DNA of 64,000 nt from an uncultured Bacteriovoracaceae bacterium (GTDB lineage: Bacteria > Bdellovibrionota > UBA2428): contig CALFZE010000130.1 in NCBI GenBank assembly GCA_937952285.1, positions 18,282-82,281 of the forward strand. Reading direction: 5' to 3'. This document shows positions 5,674 through 56,494 of this stretch, one piece after another; positions within the stretch are counted from its first letter, which is position 1, and every line of letters begins with the position of its first letter. Made by a program: the position numbers and the translations under genes. A model generated the notes under the pieces. The model worked only from the letters and a program-made list of their open reading frames with translations. It did no database searches and was not told the origin of the DNA.

Positions 5674-7530
5674 GTGGCCTTCCAAGATTTGAAGCGCTTT
5701 ATCCTCGGTGAGGCCCTCTCCAATTCCCAAGCCGAGCACGAAAGGCTTCCCAAGTGGAAAGCCCTTCCCGTCTTCTCGAGCGACGCCATGAGCTCGGTGG
5801 CCTACGCGACCGAAGAGATCCTCATCATCCTCGCGGCGCTTTCGGCGGCCGCGGCCGTGTGGAGTCTGCCCATCGCGCTGACGATCGCGGCGCTGCTCCT
5901 GATCGTCTCGCTTTCGTACCGCCAGACGATCTCCCTCTACCCGCACGGGGGCGGCGCCTACACCGTCGCGCGCGAGAACCTGGGCGAAACGCCGGGGCTG
6001 CTGGCGGGCGCCGCGCTCATGATCGACTACATCCTGACCGTGGCGGTCTCGATCTCGGCCGGCGTCGCGGCCATCACGTCGGCGCTCCCGGAGTGCGCGC
6101 CTTACGCCGTCGCGATCGCGCTGGGGCTCATCCTGATCATGACGCTCTTGAACCTGCGCGGGGCGAGCGAGTCGGGACTCATCTTCTCGATCCCGACCTA
6201 TTTCTTCATCGCCTCCATCTTGATCCTGCTCATCGTCGGATTCTACCGGACCTGGCTGGGCGACTTGCCGCCGAAGGCCGGCATCGTCCACGAGGCGTAC
6301 CCGAAGATCGGCCTTTTTCTCGTGCTGCGGGCCTTCGCGAGCGGTTGCGCGGCGCTCACCGGCATCGAAGCCATCTCGAACGGCGTGCCCGCCTTCCGCG
6401 AACCGTCCGCGAAGAACGCCAAGACGACGCTCATGATCATGATCGCCGTGCTGGGCACTTTTTTCATGGGCGTGACCGCGCTCGCCCACCAGCACCTCAT
6501 CCTGCCGAGCGCGGCGGGCGGGGGCCACGGGGGCGGCGAGACCGTGCTGTCGCAGCTTGCCCGCACGGTCTTCGGCGACAGCATGGCCTACTACGCGATC
6601 CAAACCGCGACGGCGCTCATCCTCGTGATGGCGGCCAACACCGCCTTCGCCGATTTCCCGCGCCTCGCCTCGATCCTCGGCAAGGATCGGTACATGCCGC
6701 GCCAGCTGTCGAACATCGGCGATCGACTCGTTTTCTCGAACGGGATCACGGTGCTGGGCATCGCGGCCGCGCTGCTCATTTACCTCTTCGACGCCGATAC
6801 GCACGCGCTCATTCCGCTCTACTCGGTCGGCGTCTTCCTCTCTTTCACCCTCTCCCAAAGCGGCATGGTCGCGCATCACTTGCGGCACCGCGAACCGCAC
6901 TGGGTGAAGGGGCTCCTGCTCAACCTGGCCGGCGCGATCGCGACGGCGCTCGTGCTTTGCGTCGTCGCCGTGACGAAGTTCACCGAGGGCGCCTACATCA
7001 TCATCCTCGTCATCCCGGCCATGCTTCTGCTCTTCCGCGGCGTGAAGCGCCACTACGAAAGCGTGGGCCGCCAGCTCGCGCTGCCCAAGACCTGGACCCT
7101 CGACCACGTGACGCCTTCGATCGTCGTCGTGCCGATTTCGGGCTTCCACACGGGGGTGCTCAAGGCCCTCGAGTACGCGCGCGGGATCTCGAAGAACATC
7201 CACGTCTGCGTCGTCGACGTGGACGAGCGCGCGACGGCGAACGTGCGTCAGCAGTGGCGACAAAACCTGGGCGAGGAGAGCGCCTCGCCCCTGAAGCTCG
7301 TCGTGCTGGATGCGCCCTACCGTTCGGTCATCGATCCCGTCGTCGATTACCTGAACGAGCTCGAGCGCGGCAACCCGGGGCAGACGCTCACCGTCGTCAT
7401 CCCCGAGTTCGTGACCAAGCACTGGTGGCACGCCACGCTCCACAACCAGACGGCGTTCTTCCTCAAGACGCGACTACGCTACATCGAACGTCGCGTCGTC
7501 GTTTCGGTCAGCTACCACTTGCGGGAGTAG
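5674..7530 (+). CDS. APC-superfamily amino-acid/polyamine permease with a C-terminal cytoplasmic extension
   Basis: 618-aa ORF with about 12 predicted TM helices. The N-terminus (LGEALSNSQAEHERLPKWKALPVFSSDAMSSVAYATEEIL) is characteristic of the APC family. Confidence 0.8.
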   Translation: MAFQDLKRFILGEALSNSQAEHERLPKWKALPVFSSDAMSSVAYATEEILIILAALSAAAAVWSLPIALTIAALLLIVSLSYRQTISLYPHGGGAYTVARENLGETPGLLAGAALMIDYILTVAVSISAGVAAITSALPECAPYAVAIALGLILIMTLLNLRGASESGLIFSIPTYFFIASILILLIVGFYRTWLGDLPPKAGIVHEAYPKIGLFLVLRAFASGCAALTGIEAISNGVPAFREPSAKNAKTTLMIMIAVLGTFFMGVTALAHQHLILPSAAGGGHGGGETVLSQLARTVFGDSMAYYAIQTATALILVMAANTAFADFPRLASILGKDRYMPRQLSNIGDRLVFSNGITVLGIAAALLIYLFDADTHALIPLYSVGVFLSFTLSQSGMVAHHLRHREPHWVKGLLLNLAGAIATALVLCVVAVTKFTEGAYIIILVIPAMLLLFRGVKRHYESVGRQLALPKTWTLDHVTPSIVVVPISGFHTGVLKALEYARGISKNIHVCVVDVDERATANVRQQWRQNLGEESASPLKLVVLDAPYRSVIDPVVDYLNELERGNPGQTLTVVIPEFVTKHWWHATLHNQTAFFLKTRLRYIERRVVVSVSYHLRE

Positions 7531-15244: not shown

Positions 15245-16051
15245 ATGAAAACGCACCGCCTGCCCGTTTTGGCCCTCTTCGCGCTCACCCTGAACGGCCC
15301 GGCCTTGGCGCAGAAGGCGCCGAGCGCCGACGAGATCATGCAGAAGAGCGAAAGCGCGCGCCGCATTCCGCAGCTCAAGGCGGAGGGTCTCCTCGCCACG
15401 AGCGGCGACGGTGCCCCTTCCGACAAGACCTTCCTGTTCTCCCGCAAGCTGACCTCGGACGGCACGCGTTTCCGCACGCTCACCCGTTTCAAGACGCCGG
15501 CCACGGTCCGCGACCAGGCCATCCTCTTCCTCGAACGCGACAGCGACTCGAGCGACATCTTCATGTACCTGCCCAACTTCAAGAAGACCCGCCGGGTCGA
15601 GTCCCACGCCCAGAGCGGAAGCTTCATGGGCACGGCCTTCAGCTATTCCGACATCGCGAATCCCCACGCCGAGGACTACACGCACAAGCTGCTCAAGTCC
15701 GAGAAGTGCCCCGGCGGCGCGAACAACTGCTTCGTCGTCGAGTCGACCCCCCGCACCGCGGGCGTGAAGGAACGCACCGGCTACTCGAAGTCCGTCCAGT
15801 GGATCGATTCCGTGAGCTACCTTCCCGTCAAGGGCGAGTTCTACGACGCCAAGACCCAGAAGCTCCGCAAGCAGATGGTGTCGAGCGACATCCAAGCCGT
15901 CGGCGCGAAGAAGGCCCACTACCTCGCCCACCGCTCCGAGATCACGGATCTCACGAACGGCCGCAAGAGCCGCCTCGTGTTCTCGAAAGTCAACGTCGAC
16001 GAGAATCTCCGCGATAACCTCTTCACCCAGGCCGCCCTCGAGTCGCCCTGA
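15245..16051 (+). CDS. Periplasmic LolA-like protein (outer-membrane lipoprotein-sorting-protein family)
   Basis: Signal peptide followed by a 268-aa domain with the layout of LolA-like proteins. It is paralogous to the ORF at 40888-41670. Confidence 0.65.
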   Translation: MKTHRLPVLALFALTLNGPALAQKAPSADEIMQKSESARRIPQLKAEGLLATSGDGAPSDKTFLFSRKLTSDGTRFRTLTRFKTPATVRDQAILFLERDSDSSDIFMYLPNFKKTRRVESHAQSGSFMGTAFSYSDIANPHAEDYTHKLLKSEKCPGGANNCFVVESTPRTAGVKERTGYSKSVQWIDSVSYLPVKGEFYDAKTQKLRKQMVSSDIQAVGAKKAHYLAHRSEITDLTNGRKSRLVFSKVNVDENLRDNLFTQAALESP

Positions 16052-16071
16052 GCGGATCCGCGAAGCGTCCG

Positions 16072-17358
16072 ATGCCGAAGCACGCCCCGTCTCGACGCCT
16101 CGCCCTCCTCGGCCTGGCGTGCGGCCTGGGCGTCGGCGCGCACGCGGCCGAGGTCGCGGGGCGCCTGCTCAGCGCGACCCACTTCGCCGTCGACCCCGGC
16201 GCGCGACGGCCGCTTCTGCAGAACACGCAGCTGGGCTTTCTGCGCGTCCGCGAGAGTTTCGACGAAGGCCCGCGCTTCGAGGGGAGCGTGCGGCTCGTCG
16301 CGGAACCCCGCGGGCTCGACGCCACCGGCAAGACCTTCGAAGCGGACTTTCACGAATTCTACCTCAACCTCCGGCGCGGCGACTGGGATGTTTCGCTCGG
16401 ACGGCGCATCCGCAGCTGGGGCATCGCGGACGGCGTGAACCCGACGCGTTTCTTCGGCGCGAAGGACCACACGCTTCTCCTGTCGAACGAAACCGACAAG
16501 GAGCTCCCGCTCACCCAGCTCATCGTGAACTGGACGCCCGACGGCGGCGCTTGGACTTGGGGCCTCGTTTTCCTGCCGACCTTCGTGCCCGACAAATTCT
16601 ACGTCCCGCCGGAGAGCCTGCCGACGGGCGTCGCCTTCAACGACACCGCTCAGTTTCGCGGCGAGGGATGGGGCGGCGGCGGCGGGCTGCGCCTCGCGTA
16701 CGTCGGCGACGGTTTCGACTTCGCGCTCGTCGGCTTCGCCGGCTTCGACCCGCGTCCCGAGTACGAAGTCCGCGTCGTGAAGGTCCTGCCCGAGCTCGTG
16801 ACGCTTTACCGCAAGCAGGTCGGCGCCGGTCTCGAGGCCTCGACCTCGACGGGCCCCTGGATCTTCCGCCTGGAGGGATCCTTCCGCCACTTCGTTTCGG
16901 AGTGGGATCGCGATCCCTACCTCCTACAACGGACCGAAGGCGTCGTGGGAGTCGAACGCTCGCTCGGCGACAGCTGGCGGATCAACGCGCAGGCGATCGG
17001 CCACCACTCCTCGACCTCGATCGCTTCGGGGAGCTTTCCCCTGACGGCCGAGACCGCCGGGCTCTACGCGGTCGTCCGACTGAACGAGCGGGTCTACCGT
17101 TCGCGAAGGTCGGCGGAAGCCGGCGCGACCTTCCGTCTCGCCTACGATTCCGAAACGAATCCCTTCACGGCGGAAGTTTTCGGCGTGACCTACTTCGCCG
17201 ACCTGGACTGGCTCGGACGAGGCGCTTTGGGATGGAAAGCGCGCGACGGACTCAAGCTAAGTCTCGGCGTCGACTACTACTCGGGGGACGACGAGACGCT
17301 CTTCGGCAGCCTCCACGACCTCTCGGCCGCTTGGTTCGAAGCCGCTTTCGACTTTTAG
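16072..17358 (+). CDS. Outer-membrane beta-barrel protein (partner of the LolA-like protein; DUF1302-like)
   Basis: Signal peptide, amphipathic beta-strands and a C-terminal Phe. The motif GRRIRSWGIADGVNPTRFF is shared with its paralog at 41673-42944. Confidence 0.6.
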   Translation: MPKHAPSRRLALLGLACGLGVGAHAAEVAGRLLSATHFAVDPGARRPLLQNTQLGFLRVRESFDEGPRFEGSVRLVAEPRGLDATGKTFEADFHEFYLNLRRGDWDVSLGRRIRSWGIADGVNPTRFFGAKDHTLLLSNETDKELPLTQLIVNWTPDGGAWTWGLVFLPTFVPDKFYVPPESLPTGVAFNDTAQFRGEGWGGGGGLRLAYVGDGFDFALVGFAGFDPRPEYEVRVVKVLPELVTLYRKQVGAGLEASTSTGPWIFRLEGSFRHFVSEWDRDPYLLQRTEGVVGVERSLGDSWRINAQAIGHHSSTSIASGSFPLTAETAGLYAVVRLNERVYRSRRSAEAGATFRLAYDSETNPFTAEVFGVTYFADLDWLGRGALGWKARDGLKLSLGVDYYSGDDETLFGSLHDLSAAWFEAAFDF

Positions 17359-18327: not shown

Positions 18328-19386
18328 ATGGAACGTTTTCAACGTCGCCTCCGCCGCTCCCCTTCAATTCTCCTCTTGAGCTTCGTCGCCGGCCTCTCGG
18401 CCTGCGGCAAAGCGACCACGGGCGCCGAGCCCGAGGGCGTCGTCGATAACACGACCCCCCTCGGCACGACGCCCCTTCCCTCGAGTGCCCTCTCCCTCGA
18501 CGTCATCGCCGCGAGCGGGGCGGAATGTCCGGCGGGCGGTTCGGTCCTCGTGCGTTTCGTCGACGCGAACGGCAACGCGACGCTCGACGCGAACGAGAAC
18601 GTCGTCTCGCGTCTGCCGATCTGCAACGGCGCGCGCGGCACGGACGGCGGCGAGGGCATCGCCTCGGGGCTGCTCTTCGAGAACGCGACGAGCGCGAGCT
18701 GCGCTTACGGCGGCTCGAAGCTGACCGCCTTCGCGGACCGCAACGGCAACGGCCAACGGGAGATCGGCGAGGAAATCCGCTCCGAGACGACGATCTGCAA
18801 CGGCCGCGACGGCGCGGACGGTCGCGACGGCGAAGCGGCGAGCTTGAGCGTGGCGCCCGCGAGCGCGGCCCAGTGCCCGGGCGGCGGCGCCGTGTACACG
18901 AGCGTCTCCGCGTCGAGCTCGGCGCAGACGACCGTGGTTTGCAACGGCCAAGACGGTCGCGACGGCCGAAACGGACAGGATGGATCAAACGGGCAAGACG
19001 GAACGAACGGCCGCGACGGATCGAATGGCCGTGACGGCGTGGATGGCCGCGACGCGACCTACGCCATGGGCGCCGTCGGCTCGATCGTGAAGGGACGCGA
19101 CTACTCCGCCTGCCACCACGACTACCTCTACCTGCCGAATCGCGAGGAAGGCGCGCGCGGGTGGCTGCTCTTCCGTCACCAGGCCAACGGCGCGAACGAC
19201 CAGGGCGTCGGTCCGACCGGCTTCCAGGTGTGGAACGTCGACATCGGCGACTTCGCCCTCGTGTCCGAGGTCGGCGGCGTGACCTACTGCCGACTGCGCT
19301 GGCACGCCGAGAAACGGCTCCTCGAGTACGAAGTCGTCGACCGGAGCAACGGGCTAGCGGGCGAGACGGGCCAGATCTCCTTCTGA
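18328..19386 (+). CDS. Lipoprotein with three Cys-bounded modules and collagen-like Gly-X-Y repeats
   Basis: Lipobox LSAC. Three modules run C(P/A)xGG...CNG, each followed by a G-x-x run (CNGQDGRDGRNGQDGSNGQDGTNGRDGSNGRDGVDGRD). Confidence 0.7.
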   Translation: MERFQRRLRRSPSILLLSFVAGLSACGKATTGAEPEGVVDNTTPLGTTPLPSSALSLDVIAASGAECPAGGSVLVRFVDANGNATLDANENVVSRLPICNGARGTDGGEGIASGLLFENATSASCAYGGSKLTAFADRNGNGQREIGEEIRSETTICNGRDGADGRDGEAASLSVAPASAAQCPGGGAVYTSVSASSSAQTTVVCNGQDGRDGRNGQDGSNGQDGTNGRDGSNGRDGVDGRDATYAMGAVGSIVKGRDYSACHHDYLYLPNREEGARGWLLFRHQANGANDQGVGPTGFQVWNVDIGDFALVSEVGGVTYCRLRWHAEKRLLEYEVVDRSNGLAGETGQISF

Positions 19387-19400
19387 GCAAGCGCTCCCCA

Positions 19401-19450
19401 AAAAGCGAAACCCCCGAGCACCGCGAGGCGCTCGGGGGTTTCGCTTTCGC
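19401..19450. terminator. Bidirectional intrinsic-terminator-like hairpin between convergent genes
   Basis: GAAACCCCCGAGC (19407-19419), a 10-nt loop, then GCTCGGGGGTTTC (19430-19442): a 13-bp perfect stem with AAAAA before it and TTTC after it. Confidence 0.55.
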
Positions 19451-19467: not shown

Positions 19468-21306
19468 CTACTGGAGGTCGTCGACGACCGTCGCGGAAGG
19501 TTGCAGCAGTTCGGCCGGGTAGACTTCGGGTTCCGCCGCGGCGGCGACCTTACGGCCGGCCGAGCTCGTCTTGACGGCGCCCGTATTCACGCCGAGCATC
19601 TCGTCGCCGACGCTCAGCCCGACCGGGATCGCCCGGCCCGTGTAGAGACCGTAGGCGTCGAGGTAGGCCAGGTACTCGTTGATGAGCGTCTGATGCTTGG
19701 AGCTCGCGACGACGGGCGCGTCGATGCGCACCGACTTCTGGAACATCCCGTAGGCCGGGCTTCCCCACTTCTTGATCTCTTCGTCAGCCGCCGCGAGGCC
19801 CGCCGGCGTTTGCGGCGCCATCGCGCGGAAGGTCACCTCGTCGCCCGGCGCGCGGTAGACGAAGCGGCCTTGGCAGCCCGACCAGCCACACTCGAGGGGG
19901 TTGCCCTTGAAGGGGCTATATCCCGAGGGGCGTTTCTCTTCGGCCGCTTCGAGGGTGCGGATGCACTCGGCGTAGCGCGCATCGCGGTTGTCGTTCGGGC
20001 ACAGGAAGTCGAGCACGCGAATCTTGTAAGCGCGAAAGTCGTTGTTGGGCACCCACTCGGCGCGTCCGCCCCCGGTGGCGACGGGCTTCCAAAGCGGCTC
20101 CGGCGAGGTCCAGCTCATGGCCAAGTGGCCCATGCCCCGGTAGCAACGGGTCATGTCGGGATCCGTCTGCACCTTCACGTTCACGATGTAAGTCTCGACG
20201 CGACGGCGCTCCCAGGGGAAGCGAGGCTCGATGACGCGACGCTGTTCGCGCGGCTCCATCTTGAAACCCGGCGCGAAGTCGCAGAAGGCTTTGAAGAAGC
20301 CCAAGCCGCCGCCCCGGTACTGGGGTTTGCGCTTGGTCGGGTCCGGGTTCAGGTCGAGCGGGTCCTTCTCGGGCGAGGGACCGTAGTTCCCCCAAACCCC
20401 GGAGTACGGAAAGTTATTCGGCTTCATGCGCAAGCAGCCGCGCGAGCAGTCGTAGGTGTCGCCCTGCGAGAAAGCCGTCGTGGACGGCGCCCAGGGATAA
20501 GAGGCGAAGGGCTTGGCTTGGCCCTCGGCGAGCGGCGGGTTCGGATAGCCGTAGCCGGTCATGTAGAAGCGGCCGTCGGCGTGCAGTCGCTCGAAGTCGG
20601 TGAAGCTGAGCGAGCCGAGGACGGGGATGCCCCACGCCCGCGACAGCAGCGGCGCCAAGGTGAAGCCGGAGTTGCAGCCCCAGAGGGCGGCGAAGGCGTT
20701 CGGGCTGAAACGCGGAGCGAGCGCCGCGATGCCGGGATGGAGGGCGCGCACGTCCGGATTGCCCGTGGCGTACATGTTCGCGATCGGCTGCGCGAGCGGA
20801 AAGCGGAAGTTCCAGTCCTTCGTTCCCATCGCCGCGCCCGAGGGCCAGCTCGCGTGCGAAAAGACCTCGAAGCCTTCGATCGAGCCGAACTGCGAAGCGA
20901 TCGCGGCCATCTCGGCGGATCCGAGGGTTCCACGGGGCTGCGACACGACGTGCAGACGCGCGCCCTTGATCCACGCGGTCTCGCGGTCGCCGGCCTTGAC
21001 GCCCTTCGCGATGAGCGGCTTGCGCAGGACTTCGTCGATGTTCTCGATGGGCTCCATCGGCACGTAGGCCAGGACCTGACGCTCGGGGAACTGCGACGAG
21101 AGCACGCTCAGGCGCGTCGCGACGGCGTCGAAGAGCGCCTTGCCCAATTCGTTGGGCGCGCCCATGAAAAGAAGGTGCGCGGGGAGCCGCGAGTTCACCG
21201 GGCGATCCGGCGTGGCCGAAAGCACGTAGTAATCCGCCCGCGACGCCGACGTGACCGAGACCAAGGCGCAGCCGAGCAACGCGCGCGTGAAGAATTTTTT
21301 CTGCAT
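19468..21306 (-). CDS. Secreted hypothetical protein (612 aa)
   Basis: Long ORF with a signal peptide (MQKKFFTRALLGCALVSVTSASRA) and globular composition. No family recognised. Confidence 0.65.
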   Translation of the reverse strand: MQKKFFTRALLGCALVSVTSASRADYYVLSATPDRPVNSRLPAHLLFMGAPNELGKALFDAVATRLSVLSSQFPERQVLAYVPMEPIENIDEVLRKPLIAKGVKAGDRETAWIKGARLHVVSQPRGTLGSAEMAAIASQFGSIEGFEVFSHASWPSGAAMGTKDWNFRFPLAQPIANMYATGNPDVRALHPGIAALAPRFSPNAFAALWGCNSGFTLAPLLSRAWGIPVLGSLSFTDFERLHADGRFYMTGYGYPNPPLAEGQAKPFASYPWAPSTTAFSQGDTYDCSRGCLRMKPNNFPYSGVWGNYGPSPEKDPLDLNPDPTKRKPQYRGGGLGFFKAFCDFAPGFKMEPREQRRVIEPRFPWERRRVETYIVNVKVQTDPDMTRCYRGMGHLAMSWTSPEPLWKPVATGGGRAEWVPNNDFRAYKIRVLDFLCPNDNRDARYAECIRTLEAAEEKRPSGYSPFKGNPLECGWSGCQGRFVYRAPGDEVTFRAMAPQTPAGLAAADEEIKKWGSPAYGMFQKSVRIDAPVVASSKHQTLINEYLAYLDAYGLYTGRAIPVGLSVGDEMLGVNTGAVKTSSAGRKVAAAAEPEVYPAELLQPSATVVDDLQ

Positions 21307-53368: not shown

Positions 53369-56300
53369 TTATTCATTTCCTTCGTCCTCCCCTCGGAGGA
53401 CGCTTCTTTCGGACGCCTTCCGGGCGAAGGCGTAGAACGCGGTGGGCGTGACGACGAAATCCAGGATCGTCGAGCTCAGCAGACCGCCGACGATGACGAC
53501 CGCCACGGGGTGAAGGATCTCGCTCCCGGGTTGTCCCTTCGCGAAGACGAGCGGCATCAAGCCGAGCGCGGCCGTGAGGGCCGTCATCAAGACGGGAATG
53601 AGCCGCTCGAGCGATCCGCGGATGACCATCTCCTTCGTGAACTTCTCGCCCTCGTGCTTCATGAGGTGCAAGTAGTGCGAGATCATCATGATCCCGTTGC
53701 GGCTCGCGATCCCGCAGAGGGTCACGAGGCCGATGAGGCTCGCCACCGAGAAGACGCGATCGATCGCGAAGAGCGAATAGAGCCCGCCCATAAAGGCGAG
53801 CGGGACCGTGAGCATGATCTGCGCCGTGATCATCGCCGACTTGAAATGCGCGAAGAGCACGAAGGCGATGCCGAGTACGCTCACCAAGCTGAACAATACG
53901 ATCCGGCGCGTCGCCGAGCGCTGGGCCTCGAACTGGCCGCCGTACGCGACGTAGTAGCCTTCGGGGAGCTCGACCTTCTCCTGCACCCGCCGTTGGATGC
54001 TCTCCACGACGCTGCCGAGGTCGCGGCCGGCCACGTTGCCGTAGACCACGATGCGTCGCATGCCGTTCTCGCGGTTGACCTGGTTCGGTCCGCTCGACTC
54101 GTAGACGTCCGCGATCATGTCGAGGGTCACGCGCCGGCCGTCGGGCATCGTCTTGAAGGGCGTATTCTTCATGAGCTCCAGGTTGCCGCGCGAGACGTCG
54201 TCAAAACGGTAGAAGACGTCGTAGACTTTCTGGTCCTCGATGACCTGCGAAACGATGCGGCCGCCGAAGGCGAGCTCGAGCATCTTGGAGACCTCGCCCA
54301 CGTTGAGACCGTAGCGCAGCGTCTCCTCGCGCAGGAGATGGATCTTGACCTGGGGAATGAGGGCCTGCTGCTCGACGTTCAGATCGACGAGCCCCTCGAT
54401 ATCCTGGATCGCCCCGCGAAGCTCGGCCGCCTTGACCCGTAGCATGGCGAGGTCGCTCCCGAAGATCTTGATGGCGAGCTGGGCGTTCACGCCCGACAGG
54501 AGGTGATCGAGCCGGTGCGAGATCGGCTGGCCGATGTTGACCGCGACGTTCGGGATGGCTTCCAGGTTCTCGCGCAGCTCGTCGAGGATGGCCTCGCGTG
54601 AGCGCGTCGCGTCCTTGCGGAAGGAGACGTCGATCTCGGAGACGTTAACGCCTTCGGCGTGCTCGTCGAGCTCGGCCCGGCCCGTCCGGCGCGAAACGAA
54701 CTTCACTTCGGGGGTCTTCAGGATCAGGTTTTCGGCCTCGGAGCCAATCGCGTTCGATCGCTCGAGCGAGGTTCCCGGCACCGAAACGACCGAGACCATG
54801 GCCGTGCCTTCGTTGAACTTCGGCAGGAAGTCCTTGCCCATGAAGGGGAGCAACGCGATCGAGCCGAGGAACATCACAAAGGCGACCGACAGCACTTTTT
54901 TCGGGTGATCGAGCGCCCACTCCAGGATGCGGCGATCGAAGGCCTTGAGCTTCGTGACGATCTTCGTCTCGTGGTGTTCCTTGAACTCCGCGTTCCGGAA
55001 GAAGAAAGAACAGAGCACGGGCGTCACGGTGAGCGACACGAGAAGCGACGCGCCCAGCGCCGTCACGTAAGCGATGGCGAGCGGGGTGAAGAGACGACCC
55101 TCGAGTCCATCCAGCGCGAAGAGCGGGATGAAGACGAGCGCGATGATGACCGTCGCGAGGACGATCGAGTTGCGAACCTCGCTCGACGCCTCGAAGACGA
55201 TCTTGAGGATCGACCGCTTGGCGCCCGCGGCCCGGTTCTCCTTGAGACGCCGAAAGACGTTCTCGACGTCGACGATGGCGTCGTCCACGACCTCGCCCAC
55301 GGCGATGGCGAGACCCCCGAGGGTCATCGTATTCACCGAAAGCCCGAAGAGCTCGAAGACGATCGCCGTCACGAGGAAGGACAGCGGAATGGCCGTGAGC
55401 GTGATGGCCGTCATGCGGAGGTTCGCCAGGAAGAGCAGCAGGATGACCGTCACGAGGATGCTGCCGTACTTGAGCTTGCCCTTGACGCCCGCGATCGAGA
55501 CCTCGATGAAGTCCGACTGCTTGAAGATCTCCGGGTTCACTTCGACGCCCTTCGGAAGCGTCCGTTGGATCTCGGCGATGGCCGCGTCGACCCGCTCCGT
55601 GAGCGCGACGGTATCCGTGCCGGGTTGTTTTTGGATCGACATCACGACGGCGGGCTTGGCCATGAAGGAACCGTCCCCGCGCTTGGTGCGCGGGCCGATC
55701 TTCACTTCGGCGACGTCCTTGATGAGGATTGAGCGGCCCAGGTGAACGCCGATGACCGTGTTCTCGATATCCTCGACGCTCTTCACGGCGCCGATGTTGC
55801 GGACAAGAAACTCCTTCTGATCCTTATCCAAGAAGCCGCCCGTCGTGTTCGTACCGACGTGACCCAGGTACTCGTCGAGCGCCTGCAGGTCGAGCTGGTA
55901 GTTCTTGAGCTTGGTCGCCGAGAAAAGGATCTGGTACTGCTTGAGCCCGCCCCCGATCGAGATGACCTGGGCGATGCCCGGGATCGTGAGGAGCCGGGGC
56001 CGGATCGTCCACTCCGCCAGGGTCCGCAGGTCGAGGGGCGTGACTTCGGGGTTGCTCGAGGACAACGCGATCGTCTGGATCTGCCCCATGATCGAGCTGA
56101 TCGGCCCCATCACGGGCTGGATCCCCTCGGGAAAATGCTCCGCCGCGACCGCGAGTTTCTCCGCGACGAGCTGCCGGTTGCGGAAGATGTCCGTTCCCCA
56201 GTCGAACTCGACGTAGACCACGGACAGGCCGACGCCCGACGACGAGCGGATCCGCTGCACCCCGGGGAGGCCGTTCAGGTTCGACTCGAGCGGCAAGGTC

Positions 56301-56494
56301 ACGAGCGTCTCGACCTCCTCGGGCGCCATGCCACCCGCCTCGGTCATGATCGTCACGGTCGGCCGGTTCAAATCCGGAAAGACGTCGATGGGAAGTTTGA
56401 AGAGCGTGGCCCCGCCCCATACGACGATCAGCGCCACGAGGGCGAGAACGACGAGCCGGTGCCGAAGGGCCGCCTTGATGATGAGATCTAACAT
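53369..56494 (-). CDS. Heavy-metal-efflux RND transporter permease (CzcA/CusA family)
   Basis: 1041 aa with 12 TM helices and two large periplasmic loops. N-terminus MLDLIIKAALRHRLVVLALVALIVVWG...DVFPDL. Confidence 0.9.
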   Translation of the reverse strand: MLDLIIKAALRHRLVVLALVALIVVWGGATLFKLPIDVFPDLNRPTVTIMTEAGGMAPEEVETLVTLPLESNLNGLPGVQRIRSSSGVGLSVVYVEFDWGTDIFRNRQLVAEKLAVAAEHFPEGIQPVMGPISSIMGQIQTIALSSSNPEVTPLDLRTLAEWTIRPRLLTIPGIAQVISIGGGLKQYQILFSATKLKNYQLDLQALDEYLGHVGTNTTGGFLDKDQKEFLVRNIGAVKSVEDIENTVIGVHLGRSILIKDVAEVKIGPRTKRGDGSFMAKPAVVMSIQKQPGTDTVALTERVDAAIAEIQRTLPKGVEVNPEIFKQSDFIEVSIAGVKGKLKYGSILVTVILLLFLANLRMTAITLTAIPLSFLVTAIVFELFGLSVNTMTLGGLAIAVGEVVDDAIVDVENVFRRLKENRAAGAKRSILKIVFEASSEVRNSIVLATVIIALVFIPLFALDGLEGRLFTPLAIAYVTALGASLLVSLTVTPVLCSFFFRNAEFKEHHETKIVTKLKAFDRRILEWALDHPKKVLSVAFVMFLGSIALLPFMGKDFLPKFNEGTAMVSVVSVPGTSLERSNAIGSEAENLILKTPEVKFVSRRTGRAELDEHAEGVNVSEIDVSFRKDATRSREAILDELRENLEAIPNVAVNIGQPISHRLDHLLSGVNAQLAIKIFGSDLAMLRVKAAELRGAIQDIEGLVDLNVEQQALIPQVKIHLLREETLRYGLNVGEVSKMLELAFGGRIVSQVIEDQKVYDVFYRFDDVSRGNLELMKNTPFKTMPDGRRVTLDMIADVYESSGPNQVNRENGMRRIVVYGNVAGRDLGSVVESIQRRVQEKVELPEGYYVAYGGQFEAQRSATRRIVLFSLVSVLGIAFVLFAHFKSAMITAQIMLTVPLAFMGGLYSLFAIDRVFSVASLIGLVTLCGIASRNGIMMISHYLHLMKHEGEKFTKEMVIRGSLERLIPVLMTALTAALGLMPLVFAKGQPGSEILHPVAVVIVGGLLSSTILDFVVTPTAFYAFARKASERSVLRGEDEGNE

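Follow-up and report, generated by a model that had tools for sequence, protein, structure and literature searches.

What kind of protein is made from the gene at 18328-19386 on the forward strand of the 64,000-nucleotide stretch of contig CALFZE010000130.1 analysed here (hereafter the window), and do the glycine repeats that punctuate it belong to the protein or to the DNA? A sequence-only reading had described the product as a collagen-like lipoprotein encoded by a repeat prone to slippage. In this study, the gene, its homologues and its surroundings were analysed computationally. We consider it about an even chance (roughly 0.5) that the product is a membrane-anchored stalk-and-head protein, probably trimeric, with an end domain that serves as a ligand-binding head. 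By its domains and homologues, it belongs to an uncharacterised, Bdellovibrionota-restricted subfamily of the DUF7151 proteins, and it varies the stalk-and-head theme of bacterial collagen-like proteins, its head domain being undescribed.

The open reading frame (ORF) is real. A protein identical to its product is annotated in public assemblies (P0001), one of which derives from the bioreactor-sludge metagenome SRR1506984 / PRJNA254356. The N-terminus, MERFQRRLRRSPS-ILLLSFVAG-LSAC26, comprises a basic n-region, a hydrophobic h-region and a lipobox, and agrees with the pattern [LVI][ASTVI][GAS]C following such regions that was used to define a signal peptidase II substrate. In the alignment of three-module members, conservation of Cys26 reaches at least 90%, and a lipobox is present in most family members under a strict regular expression. 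The motif thereby bears out the claim of a lipoprotein, and Cys26 is predicted to be the lipidated N-terminus of the mature protein. The eight cysteines besides Cys26 fall into four positional pairs (67/99, 125/157, 183/205 and 262/321), all of them invariant, and because of this pairing an oxidising compartment fits the protein.

Three Cys-bounded modules that begin with C(P/A)xGG, end with CNG and then run into Gly-X-Y triplets had been recognised by the sequence-only reading, and they are present as described: C67-PAGG...I-C99-NG, C125-AYGG...I-C157-NG and C183-PGGG...V-C205-NG. The pairs C67/C99, C125/C157 and C183/C205 are invariant in 30 homologues, with the C-x-x-G-G start and the C-N-G end. 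That reading missed that the domain is a catalogued one: by profile similarity the modules are assigned to Pfam DUF7151 (PF23657), which scored 40.4 bits (cutoff 27.2; E 2.9e-10) over two stretches, the best at amino acids (aa) 62-90. Module 2 also matched a hidden Markov model (HMM) of the module with a domain independent E-value (i-E) of 1.7e-15, the HMM having been built with the present protein included. Modules 1 and 2 measure 35 aa from the first Cys to C-N-G, and module 3 measures 25 aa and lacks the Asp/Asn loop; this short, loop-less form is likewise the third module in three-module homologues and occupies positions 3 to 6 in six-module members. A full-length AlphaFold2 model built on 30 homologues gave three beta-strands per module at a predicted local distance difference test (pLDDT) score of 71-89. 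In this model the first module Cys lies in the turn that leads into strand 2 and the second marks the end of strand 3, and from this placement a disulfide probably closes each module between its two invariant cysteines.

The 12-residue loops of modules 1 and 2, DANGNATLDANE and DRNGNGQREIGE, were also overlooked by the sequence-only reading. Across 80 family loops, position 1 is Asp in 100%, position 3 is Asn in 90%, position 5 is Asn/Asp in 93%, position 6 is Gly in 75%, position 8 is Leu/Phe/Tyr in 71%, position 9 is Asp in 71% and position 12 is Glu/Asp in 96%; as residue frequencies, these show the ligand arrangement of an EF-hand calcium loop. Inside a DUF7151 module of the relative P0052, Pfam EF-hand models match, and the strict PROSITE EF-hand pattern PS00018 was found in 19 retrieved related proteins, where the matches listed are module loops. 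Modules 1 and 2 therewith probably bind calcium through an EF-hand-like loop, as far as the loop statistics indicate.

Each module is followed by a Gly-X-Y run. The claim of 12 consecutive triplets in the last run stands: aa 207-242 read GQD GRD GRN GQD GSN GQD GTN GRD GSN GRD GVD GRD, with no Pro and with Asp or Asn always at Y. None of 20,000 residue shuffles reached 12 triplets (maximum 8), and the expected number is ~6e-8. Run 3 gave weak PHROG matches to collagen-like tail proteins, and its pLDDT in the monomer model is 34-38. At the DNA level, the near-perfect 9-bp repeat that had been proposed for about 18950-19060 was not recovered. The twelve 9-mers of 18946-19053 are 49.5% identical between neighbours and 59% on average, and the identity at offset 18 is 72%. 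Exact repetition extends over at most 5 nt at offset 9, 7 nt at offset 18 and 9 nt at offset 36, and over no more than 9 nt at any of the tested offsets. Tandem Repeats Finder reported only a period of 18 with 2.3 copies and a match of 79-86%, and a further repeat search returned copies 61-73% identical. The Gly codons are mixed within the run (GGC 6, GGA 4, GGT 1, GGG 1). Because the DNA repeat is degenerate and synonymous codons are mixed, the periodicity is held at the protein level: it sits in the order Gly, X, Asp/Asn, and the divergence of the underlying DNA is the reverse of what a fresh slippage-prone tract would show. In codon usage, GGA accounts for 4 of the 12 Gly codons of run 3 against 9% in eight other window genes (Fisher p = 0.02), and the remainder of the gene uses GGC almost exclusively; the excess may reflect scrambling of the repeat or a different origin of the segment.

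The family places these runs in a wider plan. About 50 homologues share one architecture: a lipobox in most, then modules, a Gly-X-Y run after each module, and a C-terminal domain of ~110 aa. Module counts are 0, 1, 2, 3 or 6, the triplets after a module number 0-15 (up to ~25 in P0128, read by eye), and the stalk as a whole varies among relatives from 0 to 6 modules and from 4 to 41 triplets. Homologue length differences are quantised in whole triplets: the Cys-to-Cys spacings between modules take values of 17, 20, 23 ... 38, with 80 of 81 ≡ 2 mod 3; between the last module and the C-H-H-D cysteine the distance ranges over 24-105 and is ≡ 0 mod 3 in 39 of 46 cases. Module-free members (P0122, P0043, P0044 and P0130) consist of a lipobox, 16-28 uninterrupted triplets and the same end domain, with little or no other globular part. 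Pfam Collagen (PF01391) matches are recorded for several homologues, including P0043 and P0044.

Named sources, together with 20 loci in species-representative genomes, are nearly all Bdellovibrionota (Bacteriovoracaceae, Bacteriovorax, and metagenome-assembled genomes (MAGs) of Oligoflexia and Bdellovibrionia), and for a few members the MAG label is vague or odd. Distribution is patchy, at these 20 loci among 185,579 species genomes, and the gene occurs as one stand-alone locus per assembly. In a related Bacteriovoracaceae MAG (L002, ~5700-6200), the family gene is split into two ORFs with a run of N in or near the Gly-X-Y-coding region, explained either by masking or by a gap in the assembly at the repeat.

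These observations bear on whether the runs fold as collagen. Gly has been retained at every third residue despite the decayed DNA repeat, lengths are quantised in triplets, and the module-free members place a long run directly on the end domain; for these three reasons a triple-helix constraint on the runs is suggested, and we put the formation of a triple helix at roughly even odds. The alternative that we take most seriously is that of a monomeric lipoprotein of the beads-on-a-string type, in which the Gly-X-Y runs are flexible, hydrophilic Gly/Asn/Asp linkers and no triple helix forms. Such linkers would account for runs that are short (median ~4 triplets) and sometimes absent, almost free of Pro and dominated by Asn/Asp at Y, with AlphaFold2 pLDDT below 50 and a Pfam Collagen score below cutoff. 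A mere linker would hardly be expected, however, to keep a strict Gly every third residue over a decayed DNA repeat, to change length nearly always by whole triplets, or to reach 16-28 uninterrupted triplets on the same end domain in proteins that include the Pfam Collagen matches P0043 and P0044; the low pLDDT, moreover, is what a collagen chain modelled as a monomer should give. We regard flexible linkers as unlikely on balance, with an appreciable share of probability nonetheless.

The C-terminal ~110 aa, which the sequence-only reading did not single out, are the most conserved part of the protein and likely its functional head. Across homologues the domain shows 54-66% identity, compared with 42-50% over the full protein length, and 26 columns are invariant in 44 sequences; the invariant residues are C262-H-H-D, W279-L, R283-H-Q, N287-G, D291-Q-G, T297-G-F, W302, D305, E314 and Y320-C321. 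AlphaFold2 modelled the domain with eight strands at pLDDT 83.8 and a predicted template modelling (pTM) score of 0.78, the invariant loop N-G-x-x-D-Q-G-x-G-x-T-G-F being modelled with low confidence. No match to the domain was obtained in Pfam, NCBIfam, PHROGs or a sequence-profile search of the PDB. An exhaustive HMMER scan of 1.84 billion representatives returned only 18 clusters at E < 1e-10, with the domain C-terminal in all of them and no remote relatives. By these searches the domain is undescribed, narrow in distribution and strongly constrained. Weak Foldseek matches to FHA, OspA and lipocalin (template modelling (TM) score <=0.45) were dismissed as generic beta-sheet resemblance, and beta-propeller alignments of the full-length model to the PDB were rejected as spurious (root-mean-square deviation ~20 Å).

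Collagen helices need a trimerisation element as a general principle (PMC8968730, PMC11923368). In the module-free members the C-terminal domain is the sole candidate for this role, given their near or complete lack of other globular parts. In other proteins, DUF7151/collagen stalks terminate in the cellulose-binding CBM_2 (P0055, P0107), in Lcl_C (P0079) or in a PD40 propeller (P0056). Since these stalks bear different known binding domains at the C-terminus, the stalk would act as a carrier for exchangeable heads, and the pattern suggests a general stalk cassette in Bdellovibrionota and Bacteroidota. By position, conservation and analogy with those proteins, the orphan domain is most likely a functional head. 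The unusually many polar positions that never vary within its ~110 aa (C, H, H, D, R, H, Q, N, D, Q, T, D, E) could instead mark a small enzyme or metal site carried on the stalk, the candidate site being the invariant Cys-His-His-Asp, Arg-His-Gln, Asp and Glu; the low-confidence invariant loop is what would be expected if a ligand, a metal or a partner chain orders the site. Neither sequence nor fold showed similarity to an enzyme or metalloprotein family, though, and a trimer interface or a sugar-binding site could be lined by the same residues just as well, so that a catalytic or metal-binding domain seems improbable to us.

On the preferred stalk-and-head reading, the protein would be exported and then anchored by lipid at its N-terminus. 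The stalk would consist of the flexible tether followed by three disulfide-closed DUF7151 beta-modules, each with its Gly-X-Y spacer; the EF-hand-like loops of two modules would bind calcium, and calcium and disulfides would probably stiffen the spacer. Three chains would associate through the C-terminal head, the Gly-X-Y runs would form short collagen-type triple helices, and the gain or loss of whole triplets would set the distance at which the head projects from the membrane. The head would bind a ligand, for example a glycan or some other structure of a cell surface, and the protein would thereby function as an adhesin or receptor of the Bdellovibrionota cell envelope, a lollipop resembling Lcl of Legionella. 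Lipidation, disulfides, calcium binding, trimerisation, the triple helix, the location in the cell and the ligand are what we infer from motifs, models and homologues; adhesion, which the sequence-only reading had also considered, is plausible.

Several points weigh against this reading. The protein scores 24.3 bits with Pfam Collagen (PF01391), under the cutoff of 27.2. Triplets across the family contain ~2% Pro, and their Y position is Asn in 34% and Asp in 27% (61% Asn/Asp). Most runs have 2-8 triplets, some homologues have none after the last module, and helices this short would have to be clamped on either side. Residue multiples of three could stem from old 9- or 18-bp slippage and involve no structural constraint. 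The strict PS00018 pattern matches neither loop of the present protein; the misses fall at non-ligand positions (Ala at position 6 of loop 1, Arg at position 8 of loop 2), and the ligand positions 1, 3, 5, 9 and 12 of both loops are D, N, N, D/E and E. In Foldseek searches of the PDB and BFVD, no known binding or trimerising fold resembled the head (best E 0.09-0.2, TM ~0.4), and the trimer itself is a matter of inference only. No conserved gene neighbourhood points to a pathway at 20 related loci. The host, finally, is uncultured, and the organism of the window was assigned from the names of homologues.

A bolder form of the stalk-and-head reading would take the family for an undescribed class of collagen-like fibre confined to Bdellovibrionota, in which very short, Pro-free G-x-[Asp/Asn] helices are clamped by trimerising, disulfide-closed, calcium-binding DUF7151 knobs, a head of new fold lets the cell, which may be a predator, recognise prey or another surface, and the length of the stalk is tuned by gain or loss of whole triplets and modules. 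We consider this extended version doubtful.

The model of the sequence-only reading, a contingency-type adhesin gene in which the 9-bp repeat slips and copy number varies rapidly between strains or within a population, fares worse, and we hold it to be very improbable. Triplet number does range over 0-28 among homologues, and repeat-number polymorphism is documented for Lcl (PMC6460258). The relative P0128 (407 aa) carries runs of ~25 triplets after module 2 and ~16 after module 3 with a 6-residue period G-R-N/D-G-V-D, which may likewise speak for expansion by slippage; in the same protein, otherwise invariant head residues are substituted (CHYD, GNSGHQVRNYD), and a recent repeat expansion combined with relaxed constraint on the head is possible. 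A contingency locus is expected to hold near-identical short tandem DNA repeats, which 18946-19053 lacks: the weak identity of adjacent 9-mers, the exact repeats of only 5-9 nt, the 2.3 imperfect 18-bp copies and the mixed synonymous codons described above do not make the classic slipped-strand substrate that had been claimed. The 90%-identity cluster of the protein is a single sequence found on ~3 public contigs, which may be re-assemblies of one sample. The nearest homologue is ~50% identical, both for this gene and for its upstream neighbour; the sole extra contig with an identical upstream gene stops before the gene; and two exact-word scans of JGI metagenomes for strain-level repeat variants gave no matches. 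Equally improbable is a periplasmic envelope spacer or tether with a role like that of Braun's lipoprotein, its rod spanning the periplasm and its end domain binding peptidoglycan or a partner in the other layer: the N-terminal lipid anchor, rod and conserved C-terminal domain, the single stand-alone gene in each of 20 assemblies and Cys pairs that suit the periplasm as well as the cell surface would all agree with it, but the several-fold variation in stalk length is at odds with a fixed envelope dimension, Pfam and NCBIfam scans found no LysM, OmpA_C or SPOR domain, and the family is patchy.

Table 1. Positions of the gene, the parts of its product and the adjoining hairpin within the window
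Feature	Position (nt)	Strand	Basis
Whole gene; 352-aa lipoprotein precursor (DUF7151 modules, Gly-X-Y spacers, conserved C-terminal domain)	18328..19386	+	ORF list, homologues
Predicted signal peptide with lipobox L-S-A-C (lipobox aa 23-26, nt 18394-18405)	18328..18405	+	Read from sequence
Low-complexity Thr/Pro/Ser-rich tether, aa 27-53	18406..18486	+	pLDDT <50 (full-length model); variable and gapped in family alignment
DUF7151 module 1, aa 54-100 (Cys67, Cys99)	18487..18627	+	Pfam; AlphaFold2 strands 54-61, 71-79, 91-99, pLDDT 75-89
EF-hand-like loop of module 1, D79 to E90	18562-18597	+	Loop statistics
Gly-X-Y run 1, 4 triplets, aa 101-112	18628..18663	+	Sequence
DUF7151 module 2, aa 113-158 (Cys125, Cys157)	18664..18801	+	Second Pfam stretch; AlphaFold2 strands 112-119, 129-137, 150-157
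EF-hand-like loop of module 2, D137 to E148	18736-18771	+	Loop statistics
Gly-X-Y run 2, 4 triplets, aa 159-170	18802..18837	+	Sequence
Short DUF7151-like module 3, aa 171-206 (Cys183, Cys205)	18838..18945	+	Module HMM i-E 1.9e-08; AlphaFold2 strands 171-177, 187-194, 200-205
Gly-X-Y run 3, 12 uninterrupted triplets, aa 207-242	18946..19053	+	Sequence
Conserved C-terminal domain, aa 243-352, all-beta	19054..19383	+	Conservation, AlphaFold2
G+C-rich long hairpin, A-run on one side and T-run on the other	19402..19447	none	RNA fold, terminator scan

The gene (Table 1) looks like its own transcription unit, because the upstream gene stops 96 bp before its start codon. Downstream, the hairpin folds at -44.8 kcal/mol (z = -7.0; 0 of 200 shuffles fold as well), the terminator scan matched the minus strand at 19428-19412, and the element separates the gene from its convergent neighbour, 19468-21306 (-), and probably serves both as an intrinsic terminator working in either direction. 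That convergent neighbour encodes an orphan secreted protein of 612 aa with an apparent signal peptide and no Pfam or PHROG match, and the protein was not seen beside the family gene at other loci. Upstream, a pair at 15245-17358 (+) encodes a TP_0789-like/DUF1329 (LolA-like) protein and, after it, a protein of 428 aa that carries a signal peptide and has no Pfam match; the two may form an envelope lipoprotein-handling pair, and a link to the present gene is not established. No gene recurs beside the family gene at the 20 related loci, the neighbours in the window are shared at none of them, and the closest homologues of the upstream AstE/AspA-like gene lie in unrelated contexts. The HMMs of the module and of the C-terminal domain match only ORF 18328-19386 in the window, which thus holds no paralogue. 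Two antisense ORFs, 18503-19390 (-) and 18364-18951 (-), were rejected as Arg-rich artefacts of high G+C content (65% in the organism of the window); their only similarity, at 2 loci, lies in the region antisense to the conserved C-terminal domain.

Elsewhere in the window, the CzcA/CusA-type RND pump at 53369-56494 (-) is 63-65% identical to named homologues in Bdellovibrio, Pseudobdellovibrio and Oligoflexia, and on the strength of these names the organism is placed in the same phylum as the family. Homologues 82-90% identical to the pump occur in JGI metagenomes, unlike the stalk gene and its upstream neighbour, for which nothing closer than ~50% was found; the contrast reflects either uneven conservation or horizontal transfer of the pump.

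The stalk-and-head protein opens no long-standing question. If the stalk is a triple helix, however, it would show how bacteria stabilise Pro-free helices of a few triplets by clamping them between calcium-binding, disulfide-closed modules, and such a design, if true, would be relevant to research on collagen folding and to the design of biomaterials. A taxon-restricted head domain and DUF7151, which is not mentioned in the literature searched, gain a concrete hypothesis as exchangeable head and stalk module, respectively. The protein is further a candidate adhesin or receptor in Bdellovibrionota, a phylum in which cell-cell recognition is central and only partly understood.

Among the closest known systems are the Pfam DUF7151 proteins, named for a domain of unknown function, of which the present protein is by its domain match a member: the two-Cys frame, C-x-x-G-G, the Asp/Asn loop and C-N-G followed by Gly-X-Y are shared, and peculiar to the subfamily are a short third module without the loop and a C-terminal domain outside Pfam. 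With EF-hands the protein shares a 12-residue loop in which positions 1, 3, 5 and 9 are Asp/Asn and position 12 is Glu, but predicted beta-strands rather than two helices flank the loops. Scl1/Scl2 of Streptococcus and BclA of Bacillus have far longer uninterrupted helices and other anchors (LPXTG and the exosporium basal layer, respectively). Their likeness to the present protein lies in Gly-X-Y repeats flanked by a trimer-nucleating non-collagenous domain and in surface attachment at one end (review PMC8968730). An NCBIfam SclB match (30.5 bits against a cutoff of 325) was dismissed as compositional, and Foldseek of the C-terminal domain did not find the C1q/TNF-like jelly-roll fold of the BclA head type.

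From the same phylum as the family comes the mosaic adhesive trimer (MAT) of Bdellovibrio bacteriovorus, whose trimeric surface fibres carry exchangeable beta-rich tips of previously unseen folds and serve in prey recognition (PMC10769870). The stalk of a MAT is a beta-helix or beta-prism structure, in many cases accompanied by an S74 chaperone-protease, and the MAT paper mentions neither collagen nor lipoproteins (PMC10769870). Pfam domains of the MAT type are absent from the present protein, the solved MAT tips in the PDB resemble it neither in sequence nor by Foldseek, and the literature searched held no relevant link between Bdellovibrio and collagen-like proteins.

The best-studied protein with such a way of working is Lcl of Legionella, a lollipop-shaped trimer whose collagen stalk supports a glycosaminoglycan-binding C-terminal head (PMC11162425), and for which divalent-cation-dependent aggregation and polymorphism in Gly-X-Y repeat number are described (PMC11162425, PMC6460258). 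The order of parts is the same, namely an N-terminal element for membrane association, a collagen-like stalk and a C-terminal globular head. The anchor is an N-terminal helix in Lcl and a lipobox here, and the stalk here is broken by DUF7151 modules. The triplets of Lcl read GPQGLPGPKGD(K/R)GEA, whereas those of the present protein are Pro-poor G-x-[DN] on a degenerate DNA repeat. Lcl_C (PF07603, formerly DUF1566) gave no Pfam match in the protein at E <= 10, and the fold searches showed no similarity to Lcl. The protein thus resembles Lcl in architecture but lies outside the Lcl family, and the two designs meet in P0079, where a true Lcl_C head is borne on a DUF7151 stalk.

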